Shown in pieces: positions 47,404 through 63,991 of a DNA stretch of 64,000 nt (position 1 is its first letter; every line of letters starts with the position of its first letter). The translations under genes and the position numbers were made by a program. The notes beneath the pieces were generated by a model. It was given only the letters and a program-made list of their open reading frames with translations, did not search any database and was not told the origin of the DNA. Source of the stretch: an uncultured Planctomycetaceae bacterium (lineage in GTDB: Bacteria; Planctomycetota; Phycisphaerae; SM23-33); contig CAZLBC010000001.1 of assembly GCA_964557575.1 (NCBI GenBank), positions 2,296 through 66,295 of the forward strand. Reading direction: 5' to 3'.

Positions 47404-47491
47404 GGCGGAATGCGGAGGACACGATCCTCAGTCGCCCTGCGACCCAACGGGTTAGCAACCCGCGCCAGCACGCCTGTCTGATTCGCATTCC
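47404..47491 (-). tRNA. tRNA-Ser (anticodon GCU), class II
   Basis: Acceptor GGAATGC/GCATTCC, G73 and encoded CCA. Anticodon loop UUGCUAA, long variable arm GTCGC-AGG-GCGAC. T-loop is unusual (AUCGUGU). Confidence 0.6.
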
Positions 47492-47493
47492 GA

Positions 47494-47582
47494 TGGCGGA
47501 GAGCGGAGGACACGATCCTCACACCGTATCGGTGCAAACGACTTTCGAGGCCGCTCCGGCGCGCCTGTCCGGTTCACTCTCC
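47494..47582 (-). tRNA. tRNA-Ser (anticodon CGA), class II
   Basis: Acceptor GGAGAGU/GCUCUCC. Loop CUCGAAA; long variable arm CACCG-AUA-CGGUG. Same unusual T-arm. Confidence 0.6.
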
Positions 47583-47729
47583 GCTGTTTCGCCGATCGAT
47601 CTCTTCGTTTACAACCCGCAAACGTTCCGCGTACTTCGGCCCCCACTGCTCGTACATCTTGCGATGAATCTTCAGCTTCGTCACGCAGAAGCTCTTGATC
47701 CTGCGCGCGTAATGTTCCAAGTCTTCCAT
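47574..47729 (-). CDS. small hypothetical protein
   Basis: GAGGA RBS; coupled to the upstream gene. The last codons and TGA lie within the 5' end of tRNA-Ser(CGA). Confidence 0.35.
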   Translation of the reverse strand: MEDLEHYARRIKSFCVTKLKIHRKMYEQWGPKYAERLRVVNEEIDRRNSGE

Positions 47730-47730
47730 G

Positions 47731-47985
47731 TCAATCCTCGACGACGTACTTGTCCGACGCGACCGTGACATAGTCGTAGTTCGTCGACAAATCCGATCCG
47801 AAATGAAGCTCGTCCATGGTGAACGGGCCGCCTTCCGCGTGCCTGCGCTTCACGCGCTTGACTCTTTCAACGTGGTCGACTTCCACGACGGAATCCTTGG
47901 CGAACTTCTCGTCGGTTGCCGTGTGCATAAAACACCCGCCAAAGCGTCTTTCGAGTTGCAAGTCTTCGACGAATCTAACCAGCAT
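47731..47985 (-). CDS. hypothetical protein
   Basis: Trimmed to the Met just downstream of tRNA-Ser(GGA). AGGGGAATAGGA upstream. Confidence 0.45.
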   Translation of the reverse strand: MLVRFVEDLQLERRFGGCFMHTATDEKFAKDSVVEVDHVERVKRVKRRHAEGGPFTMDELHFGSDLSTNYDYVTVASDKYVVED

Positions 47986-48003
47986 TCCTATTCCCCTGTA
48001 AAA

Positions 48004-48095
48004 TGGCGGAGAGCGGAGGACACGATCCTCAGGCGGTTTCTTCCGACCCGTCCGGATTCCAACCGGAGCCAGCGCGCCTGTCTGGTTCACTCCCC
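48004..48095 (-). tRNA. tRNA-Ser (anticodon GGA), class II
   Basis: Stem UCCGG/CCGGA with loop UUGGAAU. Shares its T-arm and acceptor 3' end with the other two Ser genes. Confidence 0.55.
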
Positions 48096-48226
48096 GGGAG
48101 TGCGAAATCGAGTTTGATCTTTTCAATCGGTCGCGCCGGAACGACGGTGACCTTGGTCACCTCGGTGATGTTCCCGAATCGGTCTCCGTAGAGAACAACA
48201 TCGGTTGCCACACTGTGAATGTTCAT
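48029..48226 (-). CDS. small hypothetical protein
   Basis: ATGA coupled to the upstream gene. The ORF runs 22 codons into tRNA-Ser(GGA); its true end is uncertain. Confidence 0.3.
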   Translation of the reverse strand: MNIHSVATDVVLYGDRFGNITEVTKVTVVPARPIEKIKLDFALPGSEPDRRAGSGWNPDGSEETA

Positions 48227-48504
48227 GTCGCGTCCGCCGCCTTCCCGTCCTCGACGTTCTGAAGAACATGCAACGCCGCGTCTTCCCAGTATGAGTCCCA
48301 AAACGGACAATGACTGTCGATGTCGGTTCGAACGCGGTGCAACGACGATTCCGGGTTCTTGCAGAAAAACTCGGCGGTCGCCGGAAGGTTTTCACGACCT
48401 TCGCTTCCGCGATACCAATGCCTGCACGTCCGGCATTTTTCCATCCAATCGGCGTGGACGCGGACCGCGAAACCCCACGGGTCTTCCTTCACGTGATACG
48501 CCAT
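48223..48504 (-). CDS. Cys/His-rich protein
   Basis: CRTCRH...HCPFW. Confidence 0.5.
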   Translation of the reverse strand: MAYHVKEDPWGFAVRVHADWMEKCRTCRHWYRGSEGRENLPATAEFFCKNPESSLHRVRTDIDSHCPFWDSYWEDAALHVLQNVEDGKAADAT

Positions 48505-48543
48505 TTCGCCCGACCTTTCATTTCAACCTGCTCCCGTAAAATG

Positions 48544-48633
48544 GCGGAAGGAGGGGGAGTCGAACCCCCAAGGCTTTTACGCTCGACCGGGTTCAGGCCG
48601 GTTGCCGTCTCCTGTTTCGGATTGCCCTTCCGC
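48544..48633 (-). tRNA. tRNA-Ser (anticodon UGA), class II
   Basis: T-arm GGGGGUUCGACUCCCCC. Acceptor GGAAGGG/UCCUUCC-G-CCA. Loop CCUGAAC (C33 is unusual). Confidence 0.5.
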
Positions 48634-49058: not shown

Positions 49059-49634
49059 CTATGTCTTGACGAACGGCTGCCACGCGGGACGGGTCGCCGC
49101 CAGTTCAGCCAGTCGACGGTACGCCATCCACGAAGGCTTCTTCGGATCGACCCGAAGCCGCATTCCGGCTTGCTTCGGAGTCCGGTCAGCCTTGGTTTCG
49201 TTGCACTTCCGGCAGGACGCCACGCAGTTTTCCCACGTGGTCCTGCCTCGCTGGGACCGGGGAACGACGTGATCGATCGTCAACTCCTTCTTTTCGAACT
49301 GCTCGCCGCAGTAGGCGCAGCAGTTGTGCTCCCGCTTGAAGACCGCCGACTTGGAGTAGTTCACGGTGCGCTGCGGAACCTTGTCGTACTCCGCGAGAAC
49401 GATCACTTCCGGACATTCGAACTTGAAATCGCGCGCGCCGGGAACAAACGGCCGATCGGGCCGCACGCCGCGCTCGGCCCAGTCGTCCCACGTGTACGTT
49501 ATGAACGTCTCGTGGTCGACGACCGTCGCGCCGCCGGTGTATAGGTGGCCGATCGCGTCAGCGACCGTCGACACCGCGATCGGCATCCAGTTCCGGTTCA
49601 GAACCAGAACCGACATCTGAAGCACGTCCTGCAT
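49059..49634 (-). CDS. HNH homing endonuclease (free-standing)
   Basis: AAGGAGGG RBS. CAYCGEQF...LTIDHVVPRSQRG...WENCVASCRKCNETK HNH core. Confidence 0.7.
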   Translation of the reverse strand: MQDVLQMSVLVLNRNWMPIAVSTVADAIGHLYTGGATVVDHETFITYTWDDWAERGVRPDRPFVPGARDFKFECPEVIVLAEYDKVPQRTVNYSKSAVFKREHNCCAYCGEQFEKKELTIDHVVPRSQRGRTTWENCVASCRKCNETKADRTPKQAGMRLRVDPKKPSWMAYRRLAELAATRPAWQPFVKT

Positions 49635-49935
49635 CGCTGACGCCCTCCTTTGAAACAGGGACCCTTGAAAATTTTTCCCGAAGGAAATCGATATCACACC
49701 AGATGATTTTCCCTTCGAGCGTCAACAGGACGCCCGGATGATTCGGCGTTCGAACTGGGAGTCGAATGTGAACGGGGAAATCGCCGCCGGGCGGGACAGC
49801 CCGGACCTTGGCTTTCTTTCCATCCGCTCGATTGTACCAGACCCCCTCCCATTCGCTTCGGTGGTCCCGGGACGCCTTCTTTGGATTTCGCCGCTTCTGC
49901 GGACGCTTCTTGCGATTCTTTTTTTGTTTCGGCAT
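49558..49935 (-). CDS. hypothetical protein with polybasic N-terminus
   Basis: GAGGG RBS. The 3' end overlaps the HNH gene by about 77 nt. Confidence 0.4.
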   Translation of the reverse strand: MPKQKKNRKKRPQKRRNPKKASRDHRSEWEGVWYNRADGKKAKVRAVPPGGDFPVHIRLPVRTPNHPGVLLTLEGKIIWCDIDFLREKFSRVPVSKEGVSDAGRASDVGSGSEPELDADRGVDGR

Positions 49936-49956
49936 TCCGCCCTCGATCGTTAAAAA

Positions 49957-50030
49957 TGCCCCCGGTGAGGGTCGAACTCACACTGCCCGAGGCTTAAACT
50001 CGGTCCCTCTGCCAATTGGGGTACGGGGGC
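49957..50030 (-). tRNA. tRNA with Leu anticodon UAA, class I architecture
   Basis: Acceptor GCCCCCG/CGGGGGC, A73. D-arm CCCC-AAUUGGCAGA-GGGA. Anticodon stem CCGAG/CUCGG with loop UUUAAGC. 5-nt variable loop. Confidence 0.5.
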
Positions 50031-50036
50031 GTCGGT

Positions 50037-50324
50037 TTAGTCGTTGAAATCGAACCGCTCCCGGCGTTCCTCGTCTTCAATCCGCACCGACTCGGCTTCC
50101 GCCTGAACCGCCGGGTTTTCCATGTATGTCCGAAGCGCGCGGTAAACCGGAAAACGCTGCCCGTCGTACACCGACGGCGGATCATCTTCCATTTCGCCGA
50201 CGAGCCAGTCCAGATATAAAATGTCTTCGTCGGCGATGTCGCCGATCGTGGAACCCTTGTACTTGCCGAACGGAACGACGGTGTCTTCGGCTTGGCTGAA
50301 CGGCATTTCGTTTTGATCGGTCAT
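50037..50324 (-). CDS. DUF3820-like protein (PFGKYKG motif)
   Basis: GGGAGG RBS. VPFGKYKGSTIGDI...LDWL. Confidence 0.5.
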   Translation of the reverse strand: MTDQNEMPFSQAEDTVVPFGKYKGSTIGDIADEDILYLDWLVGEMEDDPPSVYDGQRFPVYRALRTYMENPAVQAEAESVRIEDEERRERFDFND

Positions 50325-50407
50325 CTAAAGCACCTCCCTCAACCGTAATATCGGATCAAAGGCGCGAAACGTTAAGTGCTTTTTCAAATTACAGGGGAAA
50401 TTTATAG

Positions 50408-50481
50408 TCCTCCGGGCGGGATTCGAACCTGCAACCGTCCCGTTATGAGCGGGGAACTCTAACCGTTGAGTTTACCGGAGG
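50408..50481 (-). tRNA. tRNA-Met (anticodon CAU; elongator or Ile-lysidine type)
   Basis: Acceptor CCUCCGG/CCGGAGG, A73. Loop CUCAUAA. Confidence 0.6.
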
Positions 50482-50484
50482 AGA

Positions 50485-50520
50485 TGGCGCGCCCGCGAGG
50501 ACTCGAACCCCGAATCTTCC
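50485..50520 (-). other. tRNA 3'-half-like fragment (T-arm + acceptor 3' strand + CCA)
   Basis: CGGGG-UUCGAGU-CCUCG-CGGGCGC-G-CCA with no 5' acceptor partner. Followed upstream by a 16-bp hairpin. Confidence 0.4.
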
Positions 50521-50554
50521 TGCGCCTTTCGTCTTTTCGACCAGTACCTCCTGC

Positions 50555-50591
50555 TTCTAAACAGTAGAAGCAGAGGGTACGAATGCCAAGA
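50555..50591. repeat. 16-bp near-perfect hairpin
   Basis: GTACCTCCTGCTTCTA-AACAG-TAGAAGCAGAGGGTAC between tRNA-like elements. Confidence 0.5.
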
Positions 50592-50597
50592 TAAAAG

Positions 50598-50678
50598 CAG
50601 CGGCGACGGGAGTCGAACCCGCATGTGTCCAGTTACCCTTTCTCCAGTTTAGAAGACTGAGGGGATACACCGCTGATC
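50598..50678 (-). tRNA. tRNA-like gene, anticodon undetermined
   Basis: Good acceptor (AGCGGUG/CGCCGCU) and T-arm (GCGGG-UUCGACU-CCCGU), but the central cloverleaf could not be resolved by eye. Confidence 0.35.
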
Positions 50679-50865
50679 CGTTGTGCTATGAGCGCGTTTA
50701 GTTTTGGCCTGCCGTCGGGTTACGATCCCGACTCCCCAGTCTCGCCTCCAGCTTCAGGATGGCCATCCGTCTGCTATCGGCCCACGTGGAAGGGGCGCGG
50801 TCCAACGATCATCGACAGGTTTTGAAAAACGCGAGTTTTCCGTGCCCGGAAAACGGGAAATTCAA

Positions 50866-50943
50866 TGGTGCCCCCGGTCGGATTCGAACCGACACCTTGA
50901 CCGCTTTTGAAGCGGCTCCCTCTGCCAATTGGGGTACGGGGGC
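50866..50943 (-). tRNA. tRNA with Leu anticodon CAA, class I architecture
   Basis: Same 5' half as 49957..50030. Loop UUCAAAA. A73 and CCA encoded. Confidence 0.5.
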
Positions 50944-51101
50944 GACCTCGGACGCCTTGCGCTCCCTCTTCGACGAAGGACACCTTGGCAGGTCTGCGCC
51001 TTGCCGGTGCCGGGATCGCCGGGGTATTTAGGCCACCGGCCCGTCAGAGTCCCCGACGCAACCCGCGTCGCGAAGTACGAGCCTGTCGTACAGGACCCTG
51101 A

Positions 51102-51126
51102 CGGGCCGAACGGGATTCGAACCCGC
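51102..51126 (-). other. tRNA 3'-half-like fragment
   Basis: GCGGG-UUCGAAU-CCCGU-UCGGCCC-G with no 5' partner. The next tRNA starts 27 nt away. Confidence 0.35.
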
Positions 51127-51152
51127 ATCTTCCGAGCTTCTCTAAAATCAAA

Positions 51153-51227
51153 TGGGACGGGTGGGATTCGAACCCACGGTTTCCTGATTAAAAGTCAGGT
51201 GCATTAGGCCAACTATGCTACCGACCC
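51153..51227 (-). tRNA. tRNA-Lys (anticodon UUU)
   Basis: Stem CCUGA/UCAGG with loop CUUUUAA. D-stem GCAU/AUGC. Confidence 0.6.
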
Positions 51228-51426
51228 GTGTACTTTTTCCACCGAACAACCTCCGTCCACTTGTTTTTCGCCGATGGAGGCTCGACTTCCATAATCTGTT
51301 TCGCACTGCATTCCACACAGTATCGAAATTCAGCCCATCGCTGCCATTTATGAAATCCAATCGAGCAACGAAGAGGACGTTTCAAAAATCCCAGCATCGC
51401 CAAACGCCTCGAAAAAACAGTAAGAG

Positions 51427-51499
51427 CTGCTCCGGCAGGGTTCGAACCTGCAATCTTCTGATTCAGAGTCAGACGCGTTTCCATTTACGCCACGGAGCA
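51427..51499 (-). tRNA. tRNA-Gln (anticodon CUG)
   Basis: U1:A72 as in tRNA-Gln. Stem UCUGA/UCAGA with loop CUCUGAA. Confidence 0.65.
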
Positions 51500-51501
51500 G
51501 A

Positions 51502-51577
51502 TGGTCCTGCCGGAAGGAATCGAACCTTCTAATACCACCTTATCAGAGTGGCCTCTGTACCATTCGAGTTCGACAGG
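51502..51577 (-). tRNA. tRNA-Ile (anticodon GAU)
   Basis: Loop CUGAUAA. CCA encoded. Confidence 0.6.
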
Positions 51578-51582
51578 AAAAA

Positions 51583-51656
51583 TACGTCCGGCGGGATTCG
51601 AACCCGCGACCTTCGGTTTAGGAAACCGATGCTCTATCCGATTGAGCCACGGACGC
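51583..51656 (-). tRNA. tRNA-Arg (anticodon CCU)
   Basis: D-arm GCUC-AAUCGGAUA-GAGC. Loop UUCCUAA. Confidence 0.65.
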
Positions 51657-51657
51657 G

Positions 51658-51891
51658 TCACGATCCGCCGTAGACGGGATTGTACGGCGACGTCGCAGAA
51701 GCATTCATTTCATACACGCTCACGCCGGTCGCGTCCGTCACGACGGTCTCTTCGGTGACGATGGACACGTCGGCGTAATACTGCGAAAGCAGAGAAGTCA
51801 TCTCGGCGGCGACGCCGGTCAAGACGACTTTCTTCTCGGCTCCGGGAAGCGTTGAATCCGGGATGGTAACGACGATTTTGAATCCGGCCAT
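51658..51891 (-). CDS. hypothetical protein
   Basis: GGAGGAG RBS. Abuts tRNA-Arg(CCU). Confidence 0.5.
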   Translation of the reverse strand: MAGFKIVVTIPDSTLPGAEKKVVLTGVAAEMTSLLSQYYADVSIVTEETVVTDATGVSVYEMNASATSPYNPVYGGS

Positions 51892-51924
51892 GACGGTCTC
51901 CTCCGTTGTTTCAACCGAGGCGGA

Positions 51925-52749
51925 TTATAACACGAGCCGGAAACCGTCGCCAACAGACAGGGTGGACACGTACGACATGGCCTTCTCGCGCGCTTCCAAC
52001 AGGCGGACGAACTCTTTTTGAGAGCCGCCCTTGTCGGGGTGCGCGACCTTGGCTTTCTCGCGGAAGTTGCGCATGACGACGCGCTTCGCCGCTTCCATGT
52101 CGTCCGGGAGTTCCACGCGGCTGACGTCGAGGACGTCCCACCACCATTCCGACGGAGGCTTGACAGGTTCCGGTTCCCTCGCGGGATCAGGTTCCGACCG
52201 AGCCGATCCGAGTTTCGGAATGAAGTGGATTACGCTCAACGACTTGTCGGAGTCCGGGTAGCCGAACATGGTCAACGTCGTCTTGAACGTCAACCCGTGG
52301 TGCGCCGCGACGACAAGCGGTTCAATCGCCTGTTCGCGGACTCCGGGATTCGTCCGAAGCTGGACGTACTCCCTGACCTCGGCGAGCGTCGGCTTGTCCG
52401 CCTTCGACTTCAAAAAGACGTCCGCCGCGTGGTAAATCTCCCACGGGGTGGACAGCCAGCTTCCGACTGTTTCCTCCCCGTCACCATCCGGTCTTTGCGG
52501 GAACTCGCCCTGCGGAAAATGCACGTACTCGGCGGTGTACCAAGGTTCGCGTTCGTACACGCCCATTCGGCTCAATTTCATCTCCGGCTTCACGTTATAC
52601 GCGACGACGGGCATCCCCGTGGCGGTGCGTCCCTTAAACACGGTTCGAGTTCCCATGAAGTCCGTCTTCTCGTACGTGTAAACGTAGACGGGGCGCGGTC
52701 TAGGCGGTTCTCGCGTGTAGTCGGTGAACAGGATAAGAAGCTCGTTCAT
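51925..52749 (-). CDS. J-domain (DnaJ-like) protein
   Basis: C-terminal ...KVAHPDKGGSQKEFVRLLEAREKA with an HPD motif. A promoter-like motif lies upstream. Confidence 0.55.
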   Translation of the reverse strand: MNELLILFTDYTREPPRPRPVYVYTYEKTDFMGTRTVFKGRTATGMPVVAYNVKPEMKLSRMGVYEREPWYTAEYVHFPQGEFPQRPDGDGEETVGSWLSTPWEIYHAADVFLKSKADKPTLAEVREYVQLRTNPGVREQAIEPLVVAAHHGLTFKTTLTMFGYPDSDKSLSVIHFIPKLGSARSEPDPAREPEPVKPPSEWWWDVLDVSRVELPDDMEAAKRVVMRNFREKAKVAHPDKGGSQKEFVRLLEAREKAMSYVSTLSVGDGFRLVL

Positions 52750-52765
52750 GGATCAAGAAATAACT

Positions 52766-52785
52766 CGGGAAGTTTCGTGCGTCAA
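52766..52785. promoter_or_regulatory. single promoter-like unit upstream of J-domain gene
   Basis: AACTCGGGAAGTTTCGTGC. Confidence 0.3.
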
Positions 52786-52797
52786 ATGAAAAATAGA

Positions 52798-52872
52798 TGG
52801 TACTCCCGGCAGGAGTCGAACCTGCATCTCGACATTCGGAGTGTCGCGCCTTGTCCGTTGGGCCACGGGAGT
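52798..52872 (-). tRNA. tRNA-Arg (anticodon CCG)
   Basis: Stem CGACA/UGUCG with loop CUCCGAA. CCA encoded. Confidence 0.6.
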
Positions 52873-52877
52873 AAAAA

Positions 52878-52954
52878 TGGCATCCGGCGAGGGACTCGAA
52901 CCCCCAATCGCGACATTCGTAGTGTCGTGCCTTATCCAGTTAGGCCAGCCGGAT
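52878..52954 (-). tRNA. tRNA-Arg (anticodon ACG)
   Basis: D-arm GCCU-AACUGGAUA-AGGC. Loop CUACGAA. Confidence 0.6.
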
Positions 52955-52995
52955 GCATTCGCGGAACGTTATCGGTTGTCAAAGAGCATTCAAAA

Positions 52996-53068
52996 TTACC
53001 CCGGCAGGGTTCGAACCTGCAACCTTCTGATTCAAAGTCAGAAACGCTTCCAGTTGCGCCACGGGGTA
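52996..53068 (-). tRNA. tRNA-Gln (anticodon UUG)
   Basis: U1:A72. Stem UCUGA/UCAGA with loop CUUUGAA. Confidence 0.65.
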
Positions 53069-53076
53069 CCGAATAT

Positions 53077-53152
53077 TGGAGGCCCCAGCCGGAGTCGAAC
53101 CGAGCGATAAACGATTTTGCAAACCGTCCCCTTGCCGCTTGGGTATGGAGCC
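53077..53152 (-). tRNA. tRNA-Cys (anticodon GCA)
   Basis: Loop UUGCAAA. U73 discriminator and CCA. Confidence 0.6.
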
Positions 53153-53158
53153 ATGGAG

Positions 53159-53232
53159 GGTGACCGACGAGGTTCGAACTCGTACTCTTCTGACTCACAA
53201 TCAGGTATGTTGCCAATTACACTACGGTCACC
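53159..53232 (-). tRNA. tRNA-His (anticodon GUG)
   Basis: Extra G-1 pairing with C73. Loop UUGUGAG. Confidence 0.65.
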
Positions 53233-53243
53233 GTCGAATGCTA

Positions 53244-53333
53244 TGGTGCGGGATGAAGGAATTGAACCTTGTCGGCAGCCACCACGATGTTTTGCGCCAG
53301 AGACTTTACAGGCCCCCTCGTGGAACATCCCGC
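53244..53333 (-). tRNA. tRNA-Tyr-like (anticodon GUA), atypical 90-nt structure
   Basis: Perfect acceptor GCGGGAU/AUCCCGC-A-CCA and a T-loop UUCAAUU. Loop CUGUAAA in a GGGGC/GUCUC stem, but no room for a normal D-arm. CCACGA/UCGUGG pairing encloses the anticodon arm. Confidence 0.35.
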
Positions 53334-53349
53334 ACTTGGTTTTCAAAGA

Positions 53350-54291
53350 TCAAGCCTGCGACAGTTTCAGCCAGATCGCGACCATGATTTCGTCGACGAC
53401 TTCGTCAACGGTGCGATCCTTGGTTTCAACAACGCAGTCGGCTTCCGCCGGTTCTTCGTACGGATCGTCGATCCCGGTGAATCCCTTGATCTCACCGGCG
53501 CGGGCTTTCGCGTACAAGCCCTTGACGTCCCGCGCTTCGCACTCTTCGAGACTGGTGGCGACGTGGACCATGAAGAACCGCTTGTCGCCGATCAGGTCTC
53601 TCGCGGACTGCCGGGCTTCCGCATACGGCGAGATCGCCGCCGTGATCGCGATTCCTCCGACGTCGGCGACCGACTTCGCCACGAAGGAAAGCCTTCGAAT
53701 GTTTTCGTCCCGGTCCTCTTTCGAGAATCCGAGTCCCCGGTTCAAGTTCGTCCGGACCTCGTCGCCGTCCAGAACCTTCACCCGGTGTCCGAGTTCGTTC
53801 AACCGGCTTTCAAGAGCCACAGCGATAGTGCTCTTGCCAGAACCTGACAGCCCGGTAAACCAGATGACAAGGCCATTGCCTGCGTCACCACCGGTTGCGA
53901 GGACTTCCGCCGTCGCCATTGGAACCTTTTCCCGCCACGACTCGTCGCCTTCCGCCATGAGCGTTCGGACTTGGGTCGCCGAGATTCCGCCGATCTCCGG
54001 CGGCACGACGTCCTGTAAGTCACGAACTTCATAGCCGACCTTTCGTCCGACGACCACCGCCGCGATGTCCGGGATGGCCATGACGCGAACACAACCGGTT
54101 TTGATTTCGTCGGAGTACACGGCGCGGATCATCGCGATCCGCTCTCCCAGCGTGTACGGGTCTCCGTCGTTGACCGGCGTGTCCCGCACGGCGATCAAGA
54201 CGTTCTCGTCGCGATCCAGAGCTTGCTGGATCAGCCATTTGTGGCCATTGTGGAACGGCTGCCACCGGCCGATGTAAAGCGCGTACTTCAT
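53350..54291 (-). CDS. cysC: bifunctional HxGH-nucleotidyltransferase-like / adenylylsulfate (APS) kinase
   Basis: N-terminal [12 protein letters not shown] ((H/T)xGH nucleotidyltransferase). C-terminal [13 protein letters not shown]...LDGDEVR...AISPY matches the APS kinase core. GAAGGGAG RBS. Confidence 0.75.
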
Positions 54292-54356
54292 TCGTAAACT
54301 CCCTTCAAAAAAATTTGCGCTGAAGAGAGGATAGCAACGCCGCGCTTTTCATTCAA

Positions 54357-54433
54357 TGGTGCTCCGGGTGAGAGTCGAACTCACACTGTACAGTGTCTGA
54401 AACTGCTCCCTCTGCCAATTGGGGTACCGGAGC
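54357..54433 (-). tRNA. tRNA with Leu anticodon CAG, class I architecture
   Basis: Same D-arm and T-arm family as 49957..50030. Stem GCAGU/ACUGU with loop UUCAGAC. A73 and CCA. Confidence 0.5.
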
Positions 54434-54438
54434 GTAGA

Positions 54439-54512
54439 TGTCCACGGTGAGAGTCGAACTCACACTTTCATGATCCTTAGTCATGTCCCTCTGCCAATTG
54501 GGGTACGTGGAC
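54439..54512 (-). tRNA. tRNA with Leu anticodon AAG, class I architecture
   Basis: Stem CAUGA/UCAUG with loop CUAAGGA. A73. Confidence 0.5.
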
Positions 54513-54518
54513 GAATTT

Positions 54519-54594
54519 TGGCTCTCCGGGGTGGACTCGAACCACCAACCTACTGCTTAACAGGCAGTCGCTGCTACCATTGAGCTACCGGAGA
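54519..54594 (-). tRNA. tRNA-Asn (anticodon GUU)
   Basis: Stem ACUGC/GCAGU with loop CUGUUAA. CCA encoded. Confidence 0.6.
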
Positions 54595-54601
54595 ACGTAA
54601 A

Positions 54602-54674
54602 TGGACCGGAGGGGAATCGAACCCCTGACCTTCTACTTGCAAAACAGATGCTCTACCGATTGAGCTACCAGCCC
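54602..54674 (-). tRNA. tRNA-Ala (anticodon UGC)
   Basis: G3:U70 wobble pair. Loop UUUGCAA. Confidence 0.65.
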
Positions 54675-54766
54675 GTGAACGCCGTCGGAAAAGGTTGCCG
54701 GGCGTTATTTGATTGTGCATCATTCACATTGATGTGCGTTTACCAGTTACGCCAACCCGCCGTCAA

Positions 54767-54793
54767 GGTGGCGGGTGAAGGATTCGAACCTCC
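54767..54793 (-). other. tRNA 3'-half-like element in a hairpin
   Basis: GGAGG-UUCGAAU-CCUUC-ACCCGCC-A-CC. The acceptor-like strand pairs with a downstream GGCGGGU instead of a 5' tRNA half. Confidence 0.3.
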
Positions 54794-54838
54794 ATTACTG
54801 AAACGTCTGGACAGGTTCCGACGGCGAATATTGCGTCA

Positions 54839-54910
54839 ACGAGTGCCGGATTCGAACCCAAAACCAACCACCCTCGTACACGCGGGTTCGTCGCGCTAGG
54901 ACTCGTTGAC
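54839..54910 (-). pseudogene. degenerate tRNA-like sequence
   Basis: Perfect 7-bp acceptor AACGAGU/ACUCGUU and UUCGAAU loop, but a poor T-stem and no D-arm. Confidence 0.3.
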
Positions 54911-54936
54911 TTGATTTTCAAAGATCGAAAAATTTA

Positions 54937-56136: not shown

Positions 56137-56600
56137 TGCACGATCTCCTCGACGTCAACATCCTCGAAATCCGTCAAGGGGATCGCGCGGCCCTCCTTGC
56201 GAAGTCCGAGTACCGTCTGGTCTAACAACTGAAGTATCGGCGGACTGACAAACACGAGGCACTTCCGGAACTCGTCTTCCGCGACGTCGGCGATCTTCCT
56301 AAGCGGGGTTAAACGGATCGCCTGCCGGAACATGTGAAGGGAGGCGCGCATGTAGACTTCCGTGTCGAGGCTGTCGCCCAACCGGTAACCTTCAACGCGG
56401 CGATGCGGCGCGCCGCGCTCCACGGGACCCGCGTTCTTGGCTAAGTCGCGCTCAACCCGCAAGCGGCGCGACACGAACTCCAGCGAATCATAGACAACGA
56501 TCCCGATCGGAAACGCGTCGGGGTTGATGACAACCGGGGCGATCACCGTGTTTCCCTCGGCGACGTACGCGTAAACCCATTTTCCCTCAAATCGGGGCGT
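56121..56600 (-). CDS. C-terminal portion of a protein that may be joined to the upstream ORF by a +1 frameshift
   Basis: The protein-like frame begins with no start codon at ...FEGKWVYAYVAEG. It is reached from ORF 56587..56901 by a +1 shift at AUU UGA G. Confidence 0.3.
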   Translation of the reverse strand, partial: TPRFEGKWVYAYVAEGNTVIAPVVINPDAFPIGIVVYDSLEFVSRRLRVERDLAKNAGPVERGAPHRRVEGYRLGDSLDTEVYMRASLHMFRQAIRLTPLRKIADVAEDEFRKCLVFVSPPILQLLDQTVLGLRKEGRAIPLTDFEDVDVEEIVQWNPT

Positions 56601-56901
56601 CAGCACAACTGGATTCCTCTCCGAACCGTCCCTTGCGAAGCACGCGAAGAAGCGGGTACACTTTCGGGTTCTCTTCCGCAAGCGCGGCGAAGAAACGACA
56701 CCGCTTGACAATGAAGTCGGTGCGCCCCACACCGCCGACCACGCAAGCGACACGCGGCGACGGTTCGTCTTCCATGTAAACGCGCGCGACCTCGGCTTCC
56801 GGGATGATCTTCGAAAGCATCACGAAGGCTTCGTTGAACTCCCGGCGGAGGCCGTTCTCGTTAACCCAGTTCAGGACTTCCGGTTCCACGTTCTTTTTCA
56901 T
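56587..56901 (-). CDS. hypothetical protein (N-terminal part of possible frameshifted gene)
   Basis: GGAGAG RBS. Ends at a TGA that overlaps the continuing frame. Confidence 0.45.
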   Translation of the reverse strand: MKKNVEPEVLNWVNENGLRREFNEAFVMLSKIIPEAEVARVYMEDEPSPRVACVVGGVGRTDFIVKRCRFFAALAEENPKVYPLLRVLRKGRFGEESSCADAPI

Positions 56902-57171: not shown

Positions 57172-57486
57172 TCAATCGTTGGGTTTCGGGTGGATTCGGG
57201 CCAGAATGTCGACTTGAGAAATCAGCATGTAATCCTCGTCGTCGACTTTGATTTCGGTTCCCCCGTACATCGCGATGATGACGCGGTCTCCGCTTTTGAG
57301 GGGGCACTCCCCGTCCCCGTCCTCGACGGGAACATTGATCACGGTCGCCTTGTTCGTGGCCTGCTGCGCCGTGTGCGGCAGTATAATGCCGCCTTTCGAG
57401 ACGTCTTCCGGCTTGTCTTTTTGAACGAGAATACGATCGTTCAACGGTTCAAGTCGGCACGTCTTCTTTTTCGCTTCGGACGTCAT
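57172..57486 (-). CDS. groES: co-chaperonin GroES
   Basis: GGAAGGAG RBS. LEPLNDRILVQK...GGIILPHTAQ...GDRVIIAMYGGTEIKVDDEDYMLISQVDILA matches the Cpn10 family. Confidence 0.8.
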   Translation of the reverse strand: MTSEAKKKTCRLEPLNDRILVQKDKPEDVSKGGIILPHTAQQATNKATVINVPVEDGDGECPLKSGDRVIIAMYGGTEIKVDDEDYMLISQVDILARIHPKPND

Positions 57487-57533
57487 TCCGGACTCCTTCC
57501 TGAAAAAATGGTGGATCGTGCTAAAAAATTTTT

Positions 57534-57640
57534 GACCCTGACAGGATTCGAACCTGCACTGCATTAGTTTCTTGCACCACTTCACAGCCCGGCTCTTGGT
57601 GCAACACACCGGGGCGTCTGCCATTTCCGCCACAGGATCA
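57534..57640 (-). other. tRNA-like element (about 107 nt) with unresolved fold
   Basis: 3' end GCAGG-UUCGAAU-CCUGU-CAGGGUC-A pairs with GAUCCUG 107 nt upstream. D-loop AAAUGGCAGA resembles the Leu-type family. Confidence 0.25.
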
Positions 57641-57648
57641 AATTCTAA

Positions 57649-57670
57649 ACACACACACACACACACACAC
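57649..57670. repeat. (AC)11 dinucleotide microsatellite
   Basis: ACACACACACACACACACACAC in the non-coding region between the tRNA-like element and the tmRNA. Confidence 0.8.
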
Positions 57671-57852
57671 GACTTTGGCGAACCGCAGCGTAACGCATCC
57701 GCACCGACCGCCATTGACCCTACTCCGGTAACGCGGCTCAGTCCTGACCAAGCCCCTTCGGGTCCGCGCCGACCTGATGGATGCCGAACTATAGCGTCAC
57801 GTGCCGGACTTACAACATCACGTACTCGACGATCTCAAAGCCGTGAATATTT

Positions 57853-58315
57853 TGGTGGAGGCGAGGGGAATCGAACCCCTGTGCTGAATCTCTTCCGTAT
57901 CAGCGTCCCCATGTTCACCCTAGTCCTGCCTCACTCCAAGGGTACGGTGAGGGGCTTGTTGTGACACGTTTCCAGTGCCGCACACGGGTCGTGCGCAAAT
58001 GAGGAGTGCGTCTTTCCGCGTCGTCCCTCGTATGTACCTCGAACGCCGGGACTTACTTGTCAGCCGTCTCTCCGCACAGGGTTGTCCCCGTGGCCCCCAT
58101 GTTTCGCTCGCCGCTACTTAGGGTGCGCTGTCCGTTCTTGTAGGTGTCCCCATGACGTTACCAGAACAATCTCACGTCATGGAGTGCGGCTAGGCCGCGT
58201 TTGCTAAAGCAGGTTCAGCAATTAGTTGTTGAGCGCAGTTTTTAACGTGGACTGACGTTCATACCACGACATGCAGCCGATACTTCCAACGACCAGTCGA
58301 AACCAAGTCGCCCCC
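57853..58315 (-). ncRNA. ssrA: tmRNA (SsrA-like)
   Basis: 5' end GGGGGCGACUUGGUUUCGACUGG pairs with 3' end AGGGG-UUCGAUU-CCCCU-CGCCUCC-A-CCA. The UUCGAC 5' motif matches bacterial tmRNAs. Internal candidate tag reading frame ...AEPALANAA-UAG. No protein-coding ORF over 800 nt. Confidence 0.55.
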
Positions 58316-58918: not shown

Positions 58919-59386
58919 TTAGTCTTTCTTCGACTTTTTCTTCTTTTTTCGTTTCTTGCGGTTCAGCGGCGACGGCTCGTCCTGCGGAAGGTACCCGCTT
59001 CCGGGTTGTCCCATCGCAGCGGAGGTCTGCGAGAATCCGCCGACATTCCCCGACGTCATCGCTTCGCCGACGGTGCCCTTGTCGGCATTGTCCCGGACTG
59101 TCCGCGCGGCTTTCAGCAGTCCGGCCTTGACCTCGTCGAACGGGATCACCGTGGAGTAGTAATACGGGTCCTCCGTCAGGTGATCCAGCGTGATTTCCAA
59201 CGCCTCTCCGGCGTCGTCGGTGTGTTCCATTTCAACAGCAATGCCCGCGACAATCTGGCAGTAGCAAAAATCTCTGACACGTGCGTCGTCCCCGACGCCG
59301 CCTTCGACCTCATTACCCGCCATGCTCGGGTCGTCATCGGATTCCCGGAGCATCCGGTGCATCACGTCTCGACTTGTACGCTTCAT
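58919..59386 (-). CDS. hypothetical protein with poly-Lys C-terminus
   Basis: ACGGAGGG RBS at Met19. Confidence 0.5.
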   Translation of the reverse strand: MKRTSRDVMHRMLRESDDDPSMAGNEVEGGVGDDARVRDFCYCQIVAGIAVEMEHTDDAGEALEITLDHLTEDPYYYSTVIPFDEVKAGLLKAARTVRDNADKGTVGEAMTSGNVGGFSQTSAAMGQPGSGYLPQDEPSPLNRKKRKKKKKSKKD

Positions 59387-59444: not shown

Positions 59445-59515
59445 TGCGTCGGACGGGGATCGAACCCGTTACCACGTTTTTAGAGAACGCCGCCTATCCA
59501 TTCGGCTTCCGACGC
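59445..59515 (-). tRNA. tRNA with anticodon CUA (amber-suppressor-like)
   Basis: Acceptor GCGUCGG/CCGACGC, A73. Anticodon stem GCGUU/AACGU with loop CUCUAAA (U33, anticodon CUA, purine 37). T-arm ACGGG-UUCGAUC-CCCGU. Confidence 0.5.
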
Positions 59516-61011: not shown

Positions 61012-61084
61012 TCGTCGCGGAGGGATTCGAACCCCCAACCAACTGGGTGTAAACCAGTCACTCTAACCGTTGAGTTACGCGACG
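61012..61084 (-). tRNA. tRNA-Val (anticodon UAC)
   Basis: D-arm ACUC-AACGGUUA-GAGU. Stem ACUGG/CCAGU with loop UUUACAC. Confidence 0.6.
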
Positions 61085-61092
61085 GATGCCCG

Positions 61093-61410: not shown

Positions 61411-61463
61411 TAGTGTCCACCTCGTGTTCAAACTATAAAATGAACTGAGCTGCCGCACCAACT

Positions 61464-62564
61464 TTATTGCGCGCCTTTTCTACGATTACAATCCGCGCAA
61501 AGCATACGTCCATTATTCGTATCCGTCTTGCCGCCTTGAGACCATGGAGTAATATGGTCGGCGTGCATTTCCGCCAGATCGCATTCTTTATCACATTGCG
61601 CGCATTGGCCGCTTTGTTTCTCATACATCGTGCGTCGTTGCTTCTTATCGAAAGCTCGAATGTTGAGATGTTTTACTTCTCCCGTGAGAACATACGCATA
61701 AATCCCGCGTTTATTCGTCACGTCTTCATCAGCCATCAACACGGAAATCCGATCTTCCAACTCTTCAGCATCAAGCGTGTCATTTTTGTGAGCTTCGTAC
61801 ATTTCATTCCACGGCAAGCCCTTCATCTCTTTGCGGTATTCCGTAAATACCGTTTGGACCCAGCGTATCACTTTTTTGAAGTAGTTCCATAGAGAATTTG
61901 CATTTTGCCGGTGCTGATGGGTCGCCATGTAAGATCGAATGTGCATGTCGTTCGGCTGATTCTCTTTCGTCGCCCACTTGATGGCCAATTCAAGCAATTC
62001 TTGCCGAATCGGACTGCCTTTGACGTAGGCCCCTCCAAGTTGATAAGCCGCACAGCTTCTCCGAGAAAACCGTCTCTTCGCGTCGGACAACCATGGACCA
62101 GTATATACAGCGTTGCGTAGTTCTTGTTCAGTTAATGGTTCTCCGGCAATGTTAACGGTCTTGAACCATTCCAATAACTCGGTATGACTTCCCGAGCACT
62201 GATAAATCATGAGTTCGTAGTCAAGAATGCGGGACTGGGTCTCTTCACCCAAGTTGGCAAAGTTCATTGCATTGACTTGGAACATGCCGGAAACGTATTG
62301 GCAGATTGAAATAGTGCGTTGCTGTCCGTCGAGGATTTCGAAAGTGTCATCATCATGTTTGGCCCAGTACATGATATTAAGGGGCAAGCCTTTGAGCACG
62401 GAGTCAATAACCGCATTACGTTGGGCGGCGTCATAAACGAACTCTCGTTGATATGGCGGTCGGATGTCTAACAGGCCGTTGTAGCCTTTGACTCCTTCTT
62501 CCGCGTTATCTTCGTACCCGGCCACAACTTCGCGAATCGGGATATTGTGCAGTTCAACTCTCAT
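61464..62564 (-). CDS. DUF262 + HNH (GmrSD-like type IV restriction endonuclease-like)
   Basis: N-terminal ILDGQQRT (DGQQR, DUF262/ParB-like NTPase). C-terminal HADHITPWSQGG...N...CADCNRRKG (HNH/DUF1524). Low GC compared with its surroundings. Confidence 0.7.
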   Translation of the reverse strand: MRVELHNIPIREVVAGYEDNAEEGVKGYNGLLDIRPPYQREFVYDAAQRNAVIDSVLKGLPLNIMYWAKHDDDTFEILDGQQRTISICQYVSGMFQVNAMNFANLGEETQSRILDYELMIYQCSGSHTELLEWFKTVNIAGEPLTEQELRNAVYTGPWLSDAKRRFSRRSCAAYQLGGAYVKGSPIRQELLELAIKWATKENQPNDMHIRSYMATHQHRQNANSLWNYFKKVIRWVQTVFTEYRKEMKGLPWNEMYEAHKNDTLDAEELEDRISVLMADEDVTNKRGIYAYVLTGEVKHLNIRAFDKKQRRTMYEKQSGQCAQCDKECDLAEMHADHITPWSQGGKTDTNNGRMLCADCNRRKGAQ

Positions 62565-62628
62565 GAGGTTATTCCTTTGTTGTCATTTGTTTCTGTACAG
62601 TTCTGTCATGTATGCGTAGGAATAATGA

Positions 62629-62826
62629 TTATACATCTTCCTCTGTAATATCGCCTATCTTGATTAAGACGTATTGGTAAAACCTACTGTCATTACTAGG
62701 ACTTAAAGAAATACGTCCTATTGGCACCTTAAAACAGGGGTCATTTTCTGTGGTTTTGATCTCTATCGTATTACCTGTTTGCCTACAAAAGTAAGTATTA
62801 ATACGGGTTCTTTTCTTGTCTTTCAT
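62629..62826 (-). CDS. small hypothetical protein (island)
   Basis: AT-rich 65-aa ORF between the MTase and the GmrSD-like gene. Confidence 0.4.
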   Translation of the reverse strand: MKDKKRTRINTYFCRQTGNTIEIKTTENDPCFKVPIGRISLSPSNDSRFYQYVLIKIGDITEEDV

Positions 62827-62836
62827 GTCTTGTTTC

Positions 62837-63820
62837 CTATTCCTCTGTTGTTATTGGATGAAGGTTGCGAATGAGTACCCTGACATACTTAGTCTTCCCA
62901 TTAACTGATCCTTCTTTATCTTTGATTAGTCCATGAGGTTTGCTCGGTATTGCTCGTGACTTTTTGAGGTCATTGCAATTTAGTATCTCAAATTGTCTTG
63001 GGCAATATTTATCAAGGAACGTAATTGGCACGCCCATCACTCCGGGATAGTCCTCGGGAATATCTTTTACGCTATCGACGTTAATGGCGTCGTAGTTATC
63101 ATAGGCGAGATGTTTGTCGGGGTCGTAAAGCGCGATCAGGTCAATTGGTTGGTTGCGTTTCTTGTGGTTCATGTTGGTAAACCAACATGTATTGCCTAAT
63201 TTGACAAACTTCTGTCCCCCATCCTCATAACATCCACGTTTTCCTATTGGAGTATTATCGGGTACTCGATAAGAGCGACTTCCGCCTACTACCCCCATCC
63301 ATACCTTGTTCTCCCTGATAAGCGGAAACATCTCCTTATATGTAAGCGCATTCATATTGCCGATGATCAAGAACTTCTTTTTATACTGGACAAGTTGTGC
63401 GACGTATTCACGAAACAGGGAGAATGGCGGGTTGGTACAAACTATGTCGGCTTCCTTTAGCAACTCCACGCACTCCGGGCTGCGAAAATCCCCGTCACCC
63501 GCCAAAGGGGTAATCTCGATTTCATCTATATCAGGAACGCCGTTGCCGTTTTGGTCGCCTTCATATACGAACTTCATGGCGCGACCTGTTAGTCCGCCGA
63601 TGTATGAAGTCGCGATAAGCTTCTTTAGCTTCAGATGCTCGAACTGCTTGGCGAAGTAATCCCAGAACTTTGATTCCAACGGGTCGTCGCAATTCAGGTA
63701 GACGACTTTGTTCTTGAAATGTCGCCAGTAATGGTATGCCTCGGCTTCGATATCCTCAAGGCGGGTATAGAACTCGTCGTTCTTCGTCGTCTTCGCTTTA
63801 TGCAGATTGCGATTTGCCAT
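62837..63820 (-). CDS. DNA methyltransferase (N6-adenine/N4-cytosine, NPPF motif)
   Basis: AAGGAG RBS. CTNPPFS motif IV and an FxGxG-like IATSYIGG. AT-rich relative to the rest of the window. Confidence 0.7.
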   Translation of the reverse strand: MANRNLHKAKTTKNDEFYTRLEDIEAEAYHYWRHFKNKVVYLNCDDPLESKFWDYFAKQFEHLKLKKLIATSYIGGLTGRAMKFVYEGDQNGNGVPDIDEIEITPLAGDGDFRSPECVELLKEADIVCTNPPFSLFREYVAQLVQYKKKFLIIGNMNALTYKEMFPLIRENKVWMGVVGGSRSYRVPDNTPIGKRGCYEDGGQKFVKLGNTCWFTNMNHKKRNQPIDLIALYDPDKHLAYDNYDAINVDSVKDIPEDYPGVMGVPITFLDKYCPRQFEILNCNDLKKSRAIPSKPHGLIKDKEGSVNGKTKYVRVLIRNLHPITTEE

Positions 63821-63841
63821 TCATCTTCTCCTTCCGGCTAT

Positions 63842-63905
63842 CAAATAAAGACCGCCGACCTGATGGTTATGAGCCACCCGAGCTACCTGACTGCTCCATC
63901 CCGCG
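63842..63905 (-). pseudogene. 3'-truncated initiator tRNA-fMet-like gene
   Basis: CGCGGGAUGGAGCAGUCAGGUAGCUCGGGUGGCUCAUAACCAUCAGGUCGGCGGU closely matches the bacterial initiator tRNA 5' two-thirds (anticodon CAU). It breaks after the 5' T-stem, where the RBS of the AT-rich MTase gene begins. Confidence 0.5.
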
Positions 63906-63919
63906 ATCGATTTTCAAAA

Positions 63920-63991
63920 AGCCGAGAGCCGGATTCGAACCGGCGACCTGCGGTTTACAAAACCGCTGCACTGCCTCTGTGCTATCCCGGC
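63920..63991 (-). tRNA. tRNA-Thr (anticodon UGU)
   Basis: Stem GCGGU/ACCGC with loop UUUGUAA. T-arm GCCGG-UUCGAAU-CCGGC. Confidence 0.6.

Follow-up and report, generated by a model that had tools for sequence, protein, structure and literature searches.

The arrays of cluster C mycobacteriophages combine tens of transfer RNA (tRNA) genes with one transfer-messenger RNA (tmRNA), HNH genes and tRNAs labelled 'Pyl' (pyrrolysine) or 'Sec' (selenocysteine) (PMC5966550). A tRNA array unit has been defined as at least 20 tRNA genes at a density of at least 2 per kb, and no suppressor tRNAs were reported in such arrays (Tran et al. 2015, PMC4758250). Huge phages harbor up to 67 tRNAs as well as tmRNAs (Al-Shayeb et al. 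2020, PMC7162821). Here, we describe a 16.6-kb minus-strand array of 24 tRNA genes and a tmRNA in a 64,000-nucleotide stretch of contig CAZLBC010000001.1 (assembly GCA_964557575.1), the whole of which is referred to below as the window.

Since cluster C mycobacteriophages bring together tRNAs, a tmRNA, HNH genes and 'Pyl' (CUA) tRNAs, we place the array with the known viral tRNA/tmRNA arrays. As in the cluster C phages (Bixzunavirus: Bxz1, Cali, ET08; the 'G4' units of Morgado and Vicente 2018), which are large, the window, apparently also from a large phage, contains a cluster of co-oriented tRNAs with one tmRNA, interspersed HNH genes and a CUA tRNA. Both also possess tRNA-Leu genes of 74-76 nt without a long variable arm, the cluster C copies being 83% identical to Leu(UAA) of the window. 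However, there is no detectable DNA similarity to cluster C outside single tRNAs, the T4-like portal of the window is unrelated, and its array is looser (1.45 tRNAs per kb) and additionally contains groES, a D-arm-less tRNA-Tyr element and a conserved hairpin RNA. The arrays of Tran et al., dense clusters of at least 20 tRNAs, resemble that of the window in gene number (24 here), in covering most isotypes and in evolving by insertion, deletion and duplication; unlike them, the window has fewer than 2 tRNAs per kb over the whole span (again 1.45) and a CUA tRNA. It works like the tRNA array units but is looser and interleaved with protein genes. As in huge phages, many tRNAs distinct from those of the host occur together with a tmRNA in a phage of ~200 kb, although genes for tRNA synthetases, release factors or SmpB were not noted in the window. 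This kind of array is already known; the phage lineage is very divergent, the D-arm-less tRNA-Tyr was not found described, and a conserved ~190-nt RNA is uncharacterized. The array adds one divergent phage lineage to the viruses with an almost complete decoding set and a ribosome-rescue RNA, and it supports the view that large phages insulate translation from the host.

The tRNA array and its phage context

ARAGORN at default settings on the 64-kb window found 23 tRNA genes, all on the minus strand between positions 47494 and 63991, with the anticodons Ser (cga, gga, tga), Leu (taa, caa, cag, aag), Met, Lys, Gln (two), Ile, Arg (three), Cys, His, Asn, Ala, Phe, CUA, Val and Thr. A 24th tRNA, Ser(GCU) at 47403-47491, surfaces only at the relaxed setting -ps90, and all 24 are thus folded by ARAGORN at one setting or the other. 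Twenty of them score 47-73 bits with the Rfam tRNA model RF00005 (gathering score 29). Because the other 47 kb of the window contain no tRNA at the ARAGORN default, the clustering is not a matter of chance. Relaxed runs across the window gave 57 hits at ps90 and 232 at ps80, mostly spurious 'intron' models, and such hits were accepted only when Rfam, synteny or hand folding agreed.

The first-pass annotation, made from the letters alone, had proposed a very large co-oriented minus-strand array of 24 tRNAs and a tmRNA interleaved with protein genes, and most of it holds. The count and the anticodons given by ARAGORN agree with its list (23 at default plus Ser-GCU at the relaxed threshold), the tmRNA is matched over its full length by Rfam model RF00023 (88.9 bits, gathering score 47), the interleaved genes include those for an HNH endonuclease, GroES, a DUF5661 protein and a methylase, and the four genes with Leu anticodons are real Leu-type tRNAs, without a long variable arm. 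Its figure of ten CCA-encoding genes was too low: CCA is encoded in 12 tRNA genes, as well as in the Tyr-like element and the tmRNA. The strong terminator that it saw exists (12 pairs and a T run) but was placed at the start of the array; the hairpin lies 31 nt downstream of the last tRNA and therefore ends the array in the direction of transcription. The terminator-like hairpin and the tRNA genes of ordinary structure are as follows, each tRNA being supported by ARAGORN and Rfam.

47372-47343, minus strand: intrinsic-terminator-like hairpin and T run (strongest site of the scan, with 12 pairs, including 8 G-C, and ATTTTT after them)
50407-50481, minus strand: tRNA-Met, or Ile2 if modified (anticodon CAU; Rfam 51 bits)
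51153-51227, minus strand: tRNA-Lys(UUU) (Rfam 70.9 bits)
51426-51499, minus strand: tRNA-Gln(CUG)
51502-51577, minus strand: tRNA-Ile(GAU), CCA encoded
51583-51656, minus strand: tRNA-Arg(CCU)
52798-52872, minus strand: tRNA-Arg(CCG), CCA encoded
52878-52954, minus strand: tRNA-Arg(ACG), CCA encoded
52996-53068, minus strand: tRNA-Gln(UUG)
53077-53152, minus strand: tRNA-Cys(GCA), CCA encoded
53158-53231, minus strand: tRNA-His(GUG), G-1 encoded
54519-54594, minus strand: tRNA-Asn(GUU), CCA encoded
54602-54674, minus strand: tRNA-Ala(UGC)
54937-55011, minus strand: tRNA-Phe(GAA), CCA encoded (Rfam 47.7 bits)
61012-61084, minus strand: tRNA-Val(UAC)
63920-63991, minus strand: tRNA-Thr(UGU), with the array running on past the window end

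The 24 genes occupy 16,589 bp (hence the 1.45 tRNAs per kb), and the densest core, 49957-55011, holds 17 genes at 3.4 per kb, i.e., fewer than 20 genes. The array extends beyond the window. Logan contig L022 overlaps the window and reaches 3.5 kb past its end, and there the array continues upstream with a minimum of four further genes (Val-GAC, Thr-GGU, Gly-UCC and Thr-CGU), so that the array is cut by the window end and the phage total is at least 28. The tRNAs in the window cover 17 amino acids, to which the four past its end add Gly.

The GC content of the window is ~58%. Its portal protein is of the T4 type (PF07230, 2e-39) and shares no more than 28% identity with the portal of any phage isolate, and the strand encoding it also carries, tightly packed, Rad50/Mre11-like genes, a gene for a tail-like protein, and intein-bearing genes for a class II ribonucleotide reductase and an SNF2 helicase. 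No DNA similarity to isolated phages was found for the window beyond single tRNAs. The closest relatives are viral contigs of IMG/VR, with portals 58-61% identical and a shared gene order. An array protein is 100% identical to proteins on a 198,081-bp NCBI contig and on L022, and a search for relatives through the Mre11-like protein returned only one distant locus. Three other contigs are informative for the array: in L023, whose proteins are ~40-56% identical to those of the window, 40 tRNAs and a tmRNA form a syntenic array with matching gene order; L028, with proteins ~82% identical, shares blocks of tRNA order, as does L024. Judged by its gene content, the window thus represents an uncultured large tailed phage of a very divergent lineage.

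We consider the region very probably to be the downstream 16.6 kb of a translation-support module of this phage, consisting of tRNAs, a tmRNA, groES, HNH and small genes and serving as a replacement set for the host tRNA pool. Observed are the genes, which are conserved and syntenic in relatives, as well as the standard code and the surrounding phage genes; expression, processing, charging and selective advantage are inferred, as follows. The minus-strand block would be transcribed as multi-gene precursors ending at the hairpin 47372-47343, from which the tRNAs would be cut out by host RNase P and 3'-end enzymes, and the 12 tRNAs without encoded CCA would be completed by the host CCA-adding enzyme. 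Phage protein synthesis could in this way be made largely independent of the host tRNA pool, which host shut-off may remove and which defence nucleases directed at tRNAs may cut. The tmRNA, presumably charged with alanine via G3.U70, would release stalled ribosomes from broken or stop-less messages and tag their products for degradation, and the CUA tRNA would read TAG stops in a genome otherwise in the standard code. That groES lies in the block is in keeping with a module for protein production. It has been shown that phage tRNAs counter tRNA-degrading defences, and published work supports two drivers, namely the loss of host tRNAs during infection and host nucleases specific for certain tRNAs (PMC10264068, PMC11555353).

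Does the set replace the host pool, or does it only supply codons frequent in the phage but scarce in its host? Such pure codon compensation could account for the anticodons UAA, UUU, UGA, UGC, UAC and UGU, which serve A/U-ending codons that would be rare in a high-GC host. However, the anticodons cover major codons (CUG, CAG, AAC, AUC, UUC, CAC, UCG and CGG) and minor ones alike: the codons that the phage uses most are served, and so are some that it hardly uses, such as UUA (2%) and GCA (5%). Moreover, the tRNAs of L023 for 19 amino acids, together with its Tyr-like element, resemble a full replacement set. As common and rare phage codons are both served, a replacement set fits better than selective codon compensation, which we regard as unlikely.

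Two of the ordinary tRNAs deserve mention for their relatives. The Arg(CCU) gene at 51583-51656 has an ortholog with ~95% identity in L023 (17444-17517) whose anticodon reads UCU, so that the anticodon has switched within the array, and tRNA-Ala(UGC) shows 94.7% identity to a tRNA-Ala of Rhodococcus phage Dorin.

Tyrosine, leucine and serine tRNAs of unusual structure

The remaining tRNA and tRNA-like genes of the array, apart from the CUA tRNA, deviate from the usual cloverleaf or from the class expected for their amino acid, are matched weakly or not at all by the Rfam tRNA models, or appear as degenerate elements.

53244-53333, minus strand: non-canonical tRNA-Tyr(GUA)-like gene, no D arm, CCA encoded (synteny, compensatory changes, descriptor scan)
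49957-50030, minus strand: tRNA-Leu(UAA), 74 nt, 5-nt variable loop, class I shape, A73 (ARAGORN; Rfam 48.7 bits)
50866-50943, minus strand: tRNA-Leu(CAA), class I shape, CCA encoded (ARAGORN; Rfam 52.7 bits)
54357-54433, minus strand: tRNA-Leu(CAG), class I shape, CCA encoded (ARAGORN; Rfam; alignment)
54439-54512, minus strand: tRNA-Leu(AAG), class I shape (ARAGORN; Rfam; alignment)
47403-47491, minus strand: tRNA-Ser(GCU), class II, CCA encoded (ARAGORN -ps90 only)
47494-47582, minus strand: tRNA-Ser(CGA), CCA encoded, odd T loop AUCGUGU (ARAGORN default; no Rfam tRNA match)
48004-48095, minus strand: tRNA-Ser(GGA), CCA encoded, odd T loop (ARAGORN default)
48542-48631, minus strand: tRNA-Ser(UGA), CCA encoded (ARAGORN default)
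50598-50675, minus strand: tRNA-like element without D arm, anticodon loop CUUCUAA (UCU, Arg) (Rfam tRNA 30.5 bits, Sec 32.2 bits)
54767-54872, minus strand: degenerate tRNA-like remnant with two T-arm motifs (relaxed ARAGORN; hand folding)
57533-57639, minus strand: 107-nt tRNA-like element (Rfam tRNA 31.9 bits)

The element in the tyrosine slot, directly upstream of tRNA-His, has a 7-bp acceptor stem, an anticodon loop CUGUAAA (GUA), a T arm, A73 and CCA. It differs from canonical bacterial tRNA-Tyr, which has a D stem-loop with G18G19 and a long variable arm, in having no D hairpin, in whose place there is a 6-bp helix, designated X (CCACGA/UCGUGG). Helix X joins the stretch after the acceptor stem to one located downstream of the anticodon arm and stacks directly on the 6-bp anticodon stem. 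A 12-nt bulge lies at the exit point of the class II variable arm, and an 11-nt GG-containing linker, starting with UGG, runs to the T arm. The anticodon, A73, CCA and syntenic position all fit Tyr. A canonical tRNA-Tyr occupies this slot in L024, and the normal class II form is found there in the sister arrays L032, L038 and L024, while L023 has the same odd element in the same slot and its 40-tRNA array otherwise covers all amino acids but Tyr.

Between the window and L023, all pairs of the element are kept, and six of them are changed on both sides. A covariance model built from these two sequences detected the same architecture in L047 (47.7 bits) and L030 (39.7 bits), which are arrays of alphaproteobacterial metagenome-assembled genomes, with helix X in the form CCUGCC/GGCAGG in both. 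Over the four sequences, 97.8% of the cells pair, as against 41-51% in slid controls, and compensatory changes occur in 15 of the 23 pairs, including four of the six in helix X; these values come from only four sequences of two lineages, in an alignment fitted to the model. A structural descriptor scan of 1.28 Mb (the window and all loci on both strands) returned these four elements and no others, each with GUA, and the same scan of reversed-sequence controls found none. No blastn match to the element was obtained among isolated phages or plasmids, and exact-pattern scans of viral sequences for it were empty.

Such conservation makes it possible to propose, tentatively, that the element represents an undescribed structural class of functional tRNA ('X-type'), in which helix X would replace the D stem-loop and the GG linker would stand for the D loop at the elbow, and which may let tRNA-Tyr escape host nucleases that destroy cellular tRNA-Tyr. 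The architecture was found in this phage clade and in alphaproteobacterial tRNA arrays, always with the anticodon GUA. A 2020 review of non-canonical tRNAs reports the loss of the D arm only for mitochondria, with no bacterial or phage case (PMC7609411). The D-arm-lacking mitochondrial tRNAs also have no D stem-loop and keep the acceptor stem, anticodon arm and T arm (PMC7609411); unlike them, the Tyr element has an extra 6-bp helix and is located in a phage or bacterial array, not in an organelle. A conserved D-arm-less tRNA-Tyr would therefore broaden the structural range of tRNAs outside mitochondria. Phage tRNA-Tyr restores infection against retron Eco7 (PMC10264068, PMC11555353), and the X-type element would offer a concrete test case for the evasion of tRNA-Tyr-cleaving defences such as retron Eco7 PtuAB.

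The two alphaproteobacterial loci (L047 3494-3581 and L030 44-133) combine the D-arm-less Tyr(GUA) with the same short tRNA-Leu as the phage, in chromosomal tRNA arrays. This co-occurrence points to an exchange of tRNA genes between phage and cellular arrays.

The four Leu genes are 74-78 nt long, with A73 and a variable loop of 5-6 nt, and therefore lack the long variable arm (at least 10 nt) of bacterial class II tRNA-Leu. They share with that class A73 and the Leu-type D arm (3-bp stem, loop AAUUGGCAG); in all four, the D arm has a 3-bp stem and the D loop CAAUUGGCAGA. In an alignment with the long Leu tRNAs of a viral contig having both forms, the short form matches end to end except for the missing variable arm. 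The exact 21-mer of the D arm was found on 15 contigs of IMG/VR and on 19 genome contigs, without exception in short Leu tRNAs and for the most part within arrays, and 74 records of cluster C mycobacteriophages contain genes annotated as tRNA-Leu that are 83% identical to Leu(UAA) of the window. The leucyl-tRNA synthetase of E. coli recognizes A73 and tertiary features of the core and needs neither the variable arm nor the anticodon. It is therefore plausible that the short tRNAs can be charged with leucine. Leu tRNAs without a variable arm are widespread among phage and mobile arrays, but their annotations do not remark on the missing arm.

Among the Ser genes, Ser(GCU) folds into a complete cloverleaf of class II, with G73 and CCA, and its T arm GAGGAUCGUGUCCUC recurs in Ser(CGA) and Ser(GGA). 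The Ser(GGA) ortholog in L023 has the same T arm, and because this odd arm is kept in a distant relative, we read the genes as unusual but genuine. Ser(UGA) is 82% identical to a tRNA-Ser of Synechococcus phage S-CREM1 and has a weak Rfam match, through the Sec model (27.3 bits).

Beyond the 24 tRNAs, roughly eight further tRNA-like elements had been announced in the first-pass annotation. Such elements do exist, and their number comes to about seven: four of full length (50598-50675, 53244-53333, 54767-54872 and 57533-57639, the second being the Tyr element) and three T-arm remnants near 51126, 50512 and 54850. The 50598-50675 element has no counterpart in the relatives, so it may be a decaying gene, and it is probably a degenerate tRNA-Arg; in L024, its slot contains a canonical Arg(UCU). 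The 54767-54872 remnant is absent in L023, where Phe and Ala adjoin. The 107-nt element at 57533-57639 has the D arm of a class II tRNA-Leu, which matches the long Leu tRNAs in the alignment, along with A73, a 16-nt anticodon loop and a long extra arm; it is kept in L028 (three differences, 33.4 bits) and absent in L023.

These elements bear on another reading of the array, as a selfish or neutral accumulation: a tRNA dump spread by homing endonucleases and recombination, with many pseudogenes and little benefit. The HNH and GmrSD-HNH genes inside the array would fit it, as would the T-arm remnants and hybrid elements, a low-GC insert with a methylase and gene content that varies between relatives. 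Against it, tRNA order and sequences are kept between phages whose proteins are only ~40-55% identical, and the non-canonical Tyr gene keeps every helix through compensatory changes. The conserved order and the compensated Tyr helices indicate purifying selection on the folded RNAs, and we find mere accumulation quite improbable.

The reading as a replacement set for host tRNAs has points against it, too. Several tRNA remnants show decay in parts of the array, the genes for Tyr and Leu are non-canonical, and Ser CGA, GGA and GCU, with the T loop AUCGUGU instead of UUCGAAU, for this reason escape the Rfam tRNA model. Promoter-like and terminator-like sites are no commoner than in shuffled sequence. 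Finally, SmpB, the protein with which tmRNA works, was not found among the scanned window proteins, although not all open reading frames (ORFs) were scanned and the host may supply it. Some non-canonical components, foremost the D-arm-less Tyr and also the ~190-nt RNA, are conserved and not decaying.

The CUA tRNA, the tmRNA and an adjoining conserved RNA

Three RNA features occupy the part of the array between the GroES and Val genes.

59445-59515, minus strand: amber suppressor tRNA (CUA), G1-C72, A73 (ARAGORN 'Pyl'; Rfam 52.8 bits)
57853-58315, minus strand: one-piece tmRNA, CCA encoded (Rfam RF00023, full model covered)
57655-57848, minus strand: conserved ~190-nt non-coding element directly after the tmRNA (alignment with L028 and L023)

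The CUA tRNA is a standard 71-nt tRNA according to Rfam; when parsed by hand, its D loop measures 9 nt, its anticodon stem 5 bp and its variable loop 4 nt. A tRNA-Pyl would have a 6-bp anticodon stem, a 3-nt variable loop and a very small D loop and would be accompanied by pylS/pylBCD; these hallmarks are lacking, no Pyl genes occur among the scanned neighbour genes, and the ARAGORN label stems from the anticodon alone, so that this identification was rejected. L028 and L023 have the gene at the corresponding position (93% and 73% identity, respectively), and no blastn match to it was obtained among isolated phages. The L023 copy is nearest to Arg tRNAs (77%), the copy in the window has no clear parent, and no amino acid could be assigned to it from sequence. 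Besides the amber tRNA, L023 possesses an ochre (UUA) suppressor tRNA at 4117-4191, in a part of the array whose counterpart in the phage described here falls outside the window.

Could TAG be reassigned in part of the genome, with the CUA tRNA as its decoder, as in the TAG-recoded gut phages? The occurrence of the tRNA at the same position in three relatives, the additional UUA tRNA of L023 and the fact that TAG is the least used stop in the window, TGA being the commonest, would be in line with recoding. However, over the 64 kb, genes of up to 1237 aa, the portal gene included, are long, intact, uninterrupted and tightly packed when read in the standard code. In six cases, a gene stops at TAG and the next one follows at once, with in-frame extensions of only 5-53 codons. 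Apart from the 5-codon extension, coding-like GC content at third codon positions beyond the TAG was seen only in the 53-codon one, after the 2H-phosphoesterase-like gene 8556-9929. Just past the TAG stop of that gene, there is a plus-strand ORF of 60 aa with a hydrophobic C-terminus (8377-8559), on a strand otherwise almost gene-free, and this ORF explains the extension better than recoding does. TAG is thus a real stop, and the window uses the standard code. In encoding a CUA-anticodon tRNA, the window resembles TAG-recoded phages; unlike theirs, its genes read correctly in the standard code, and TAG terminates. Since the genes are intact and end in TAG, the CUA tRNA is best interpreted as a conserved suppressor in a standard-code phage and not as a sign of recoding, which we hold to be very unlikely.

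That the window is no phage at all, but a bacterial chromosomal or plasmid 'tRNA array unit', is highly improbable: the short tRNA-Leu and the X-type Tyr do also occur in arrays on large contigs of alphaproteobacterial metagenome-assembled genomes, but the same strand carries T4-like portal, tail-like, Mre11/Rad50-like, ribonucleotide reductase and SNF2 genes, and the nearest relatives are IMG/VR viral contigs.

The acceptor stem of the tmRNA (GGGGGCG/CGCCUCC) includes the pair G3.U70 and is followed by ACCA. A G3.U70 pair specifies charging with alanine. The tag frame, GCU GAA CCU GCU UUA GCA AAC GCG GCC UAG, encodes AEPALANAA* with GCU as the resume codon according to the family alignment, and ARAGORN read the tags AEPALANAA in L028 and AEPALAPAA in L023. 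The tag frame is conserved, but the length of the pseudoknot region differs by 50-120 nt, and because this region is enlarged, ARAGORN misses the tmRNA of the window at default settings. An intron in this long tmRNA was considered and rejected, as the length differences fall in the variable pseudoknot region. No blastn match to the tmRNA was found among isolated phages. The tmRNA is located 1.1 kb from the suppressor tRNA, and one may speculate that in such a standard-code phage read-through and ribosome rescue are linked.

The ~190-nt element that follows the tmRNA has counterparts in L028 (4083-4276) and L023 (11807-12003). Its mean column identity over the three sequences is 87%, whereas the flanking proteins are only ~37-56% identical to those of L023. 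RNAalifold predicts 70 pairs in one long hairpin with many G.U pairs, which suggests that it acts as an RNA on the gene strand. It contains no conserved ORF, for which reason a protein-coding nature was rejected, and it matches no Rfam family; exact-pattern scans of viral and metagenome sequences for it were empty. As its folding energy is ordinary for its composition (z = -0.31), the proposed structure is drawn from conservation and a few compensatory pairs. In L023, the element is followed by a terminator. A (GT)10 microsatellite (57645-57664) lies between the hairpin element and the 107-nt tRNA-like element in the window and is absent in L028 and L023.

Protein genes between the tRNA blocks

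The tRNA blocks are separated by the following protein genes.

49059-49697, minus strand: HNH homing-type endonuclease (Pfam HNH, 3.9e-16; homologs in the L023 and L024 arrays)
50037-50324, minus strand: small protein with an ExoX-like C-terminal motif (Pfam PF20600, 8.7e-9; tblastn matches in L023 and L024)
51218-51397, minus strand: 59-aa Cys-rich protein between tRNA-Gln and tRNA-Lys (78% aa identity to L023)
51925-52749, minus strand: 274-aa protein with no assigned function (weak PHROG match)
53350-54291, minus strand: nucleotidyltransferase (cytidylyltransferase-like)/APS-kinase fusion (Pfam APS_kinase 4.1e-65, CTP_transf_like 2e-7)
57172-57486, minus strand: GroES (Cpn10) co-chaperonin (phrog_3188, 6.4e-19; Cpn10 match to the called gene in L022)
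58919-59386, minus strand: DUF5661 protein between the CUA tRNA and the tmRNA
61464-62564, minus strand: GmrSD_N and HNH nuclease (Pfam 9.1e-19 and 3.2e-13)
62837-63820, minus strand: EcoRI-like adenine methyltransferase in a low-GC (46%) stretch (Pfam 5.4e-125; GC profile)

The 198-nt spacer between Gln and Lys is conserved, and an RNA was considered for it but rejected, since its substitutions fall in third positions and point to the gene of the small Cys-rich protein. No homolog of the 274-aa protein besides itself was found in the protein database, and a search for relatives through it was empty. The DUF5661 protein is not an array marker: a metagenome scan based on it yielded 80 loci, only three of which have arrays.

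The GC content falls to 46-53% over 61464-63820, compared with ~58% elsewhere, and this stretch is absent at the same place in L023, which suggests a recent insertion into the array. The cytidylyltransferase-like/APS-kinase fusion, located between tRNA blocks, is also absent from the same slot in L023. Two adjacent minus-strand genes (55531-56136 and 56121-56753) both match the same two-gene block in L024 and L023; from these matches, they look like paralogs conserved inside the array. Just past the window end, in L022 (1-2667), the array is split by genes for a 549-aa VWA/CoxE-like protein and an ARPP-1/ARPP-2 protein, a pair that also occurs in L023. Outside the array, inteins with homing-endonuclease domains are present in three large minus-strand genes (2527-6231, 13616-16477 and 35459-39172), the carriers being the class II ribonucleotide reductase, the SNF2 helicase and the 1237-aa protein, the last with two intein-type regions.

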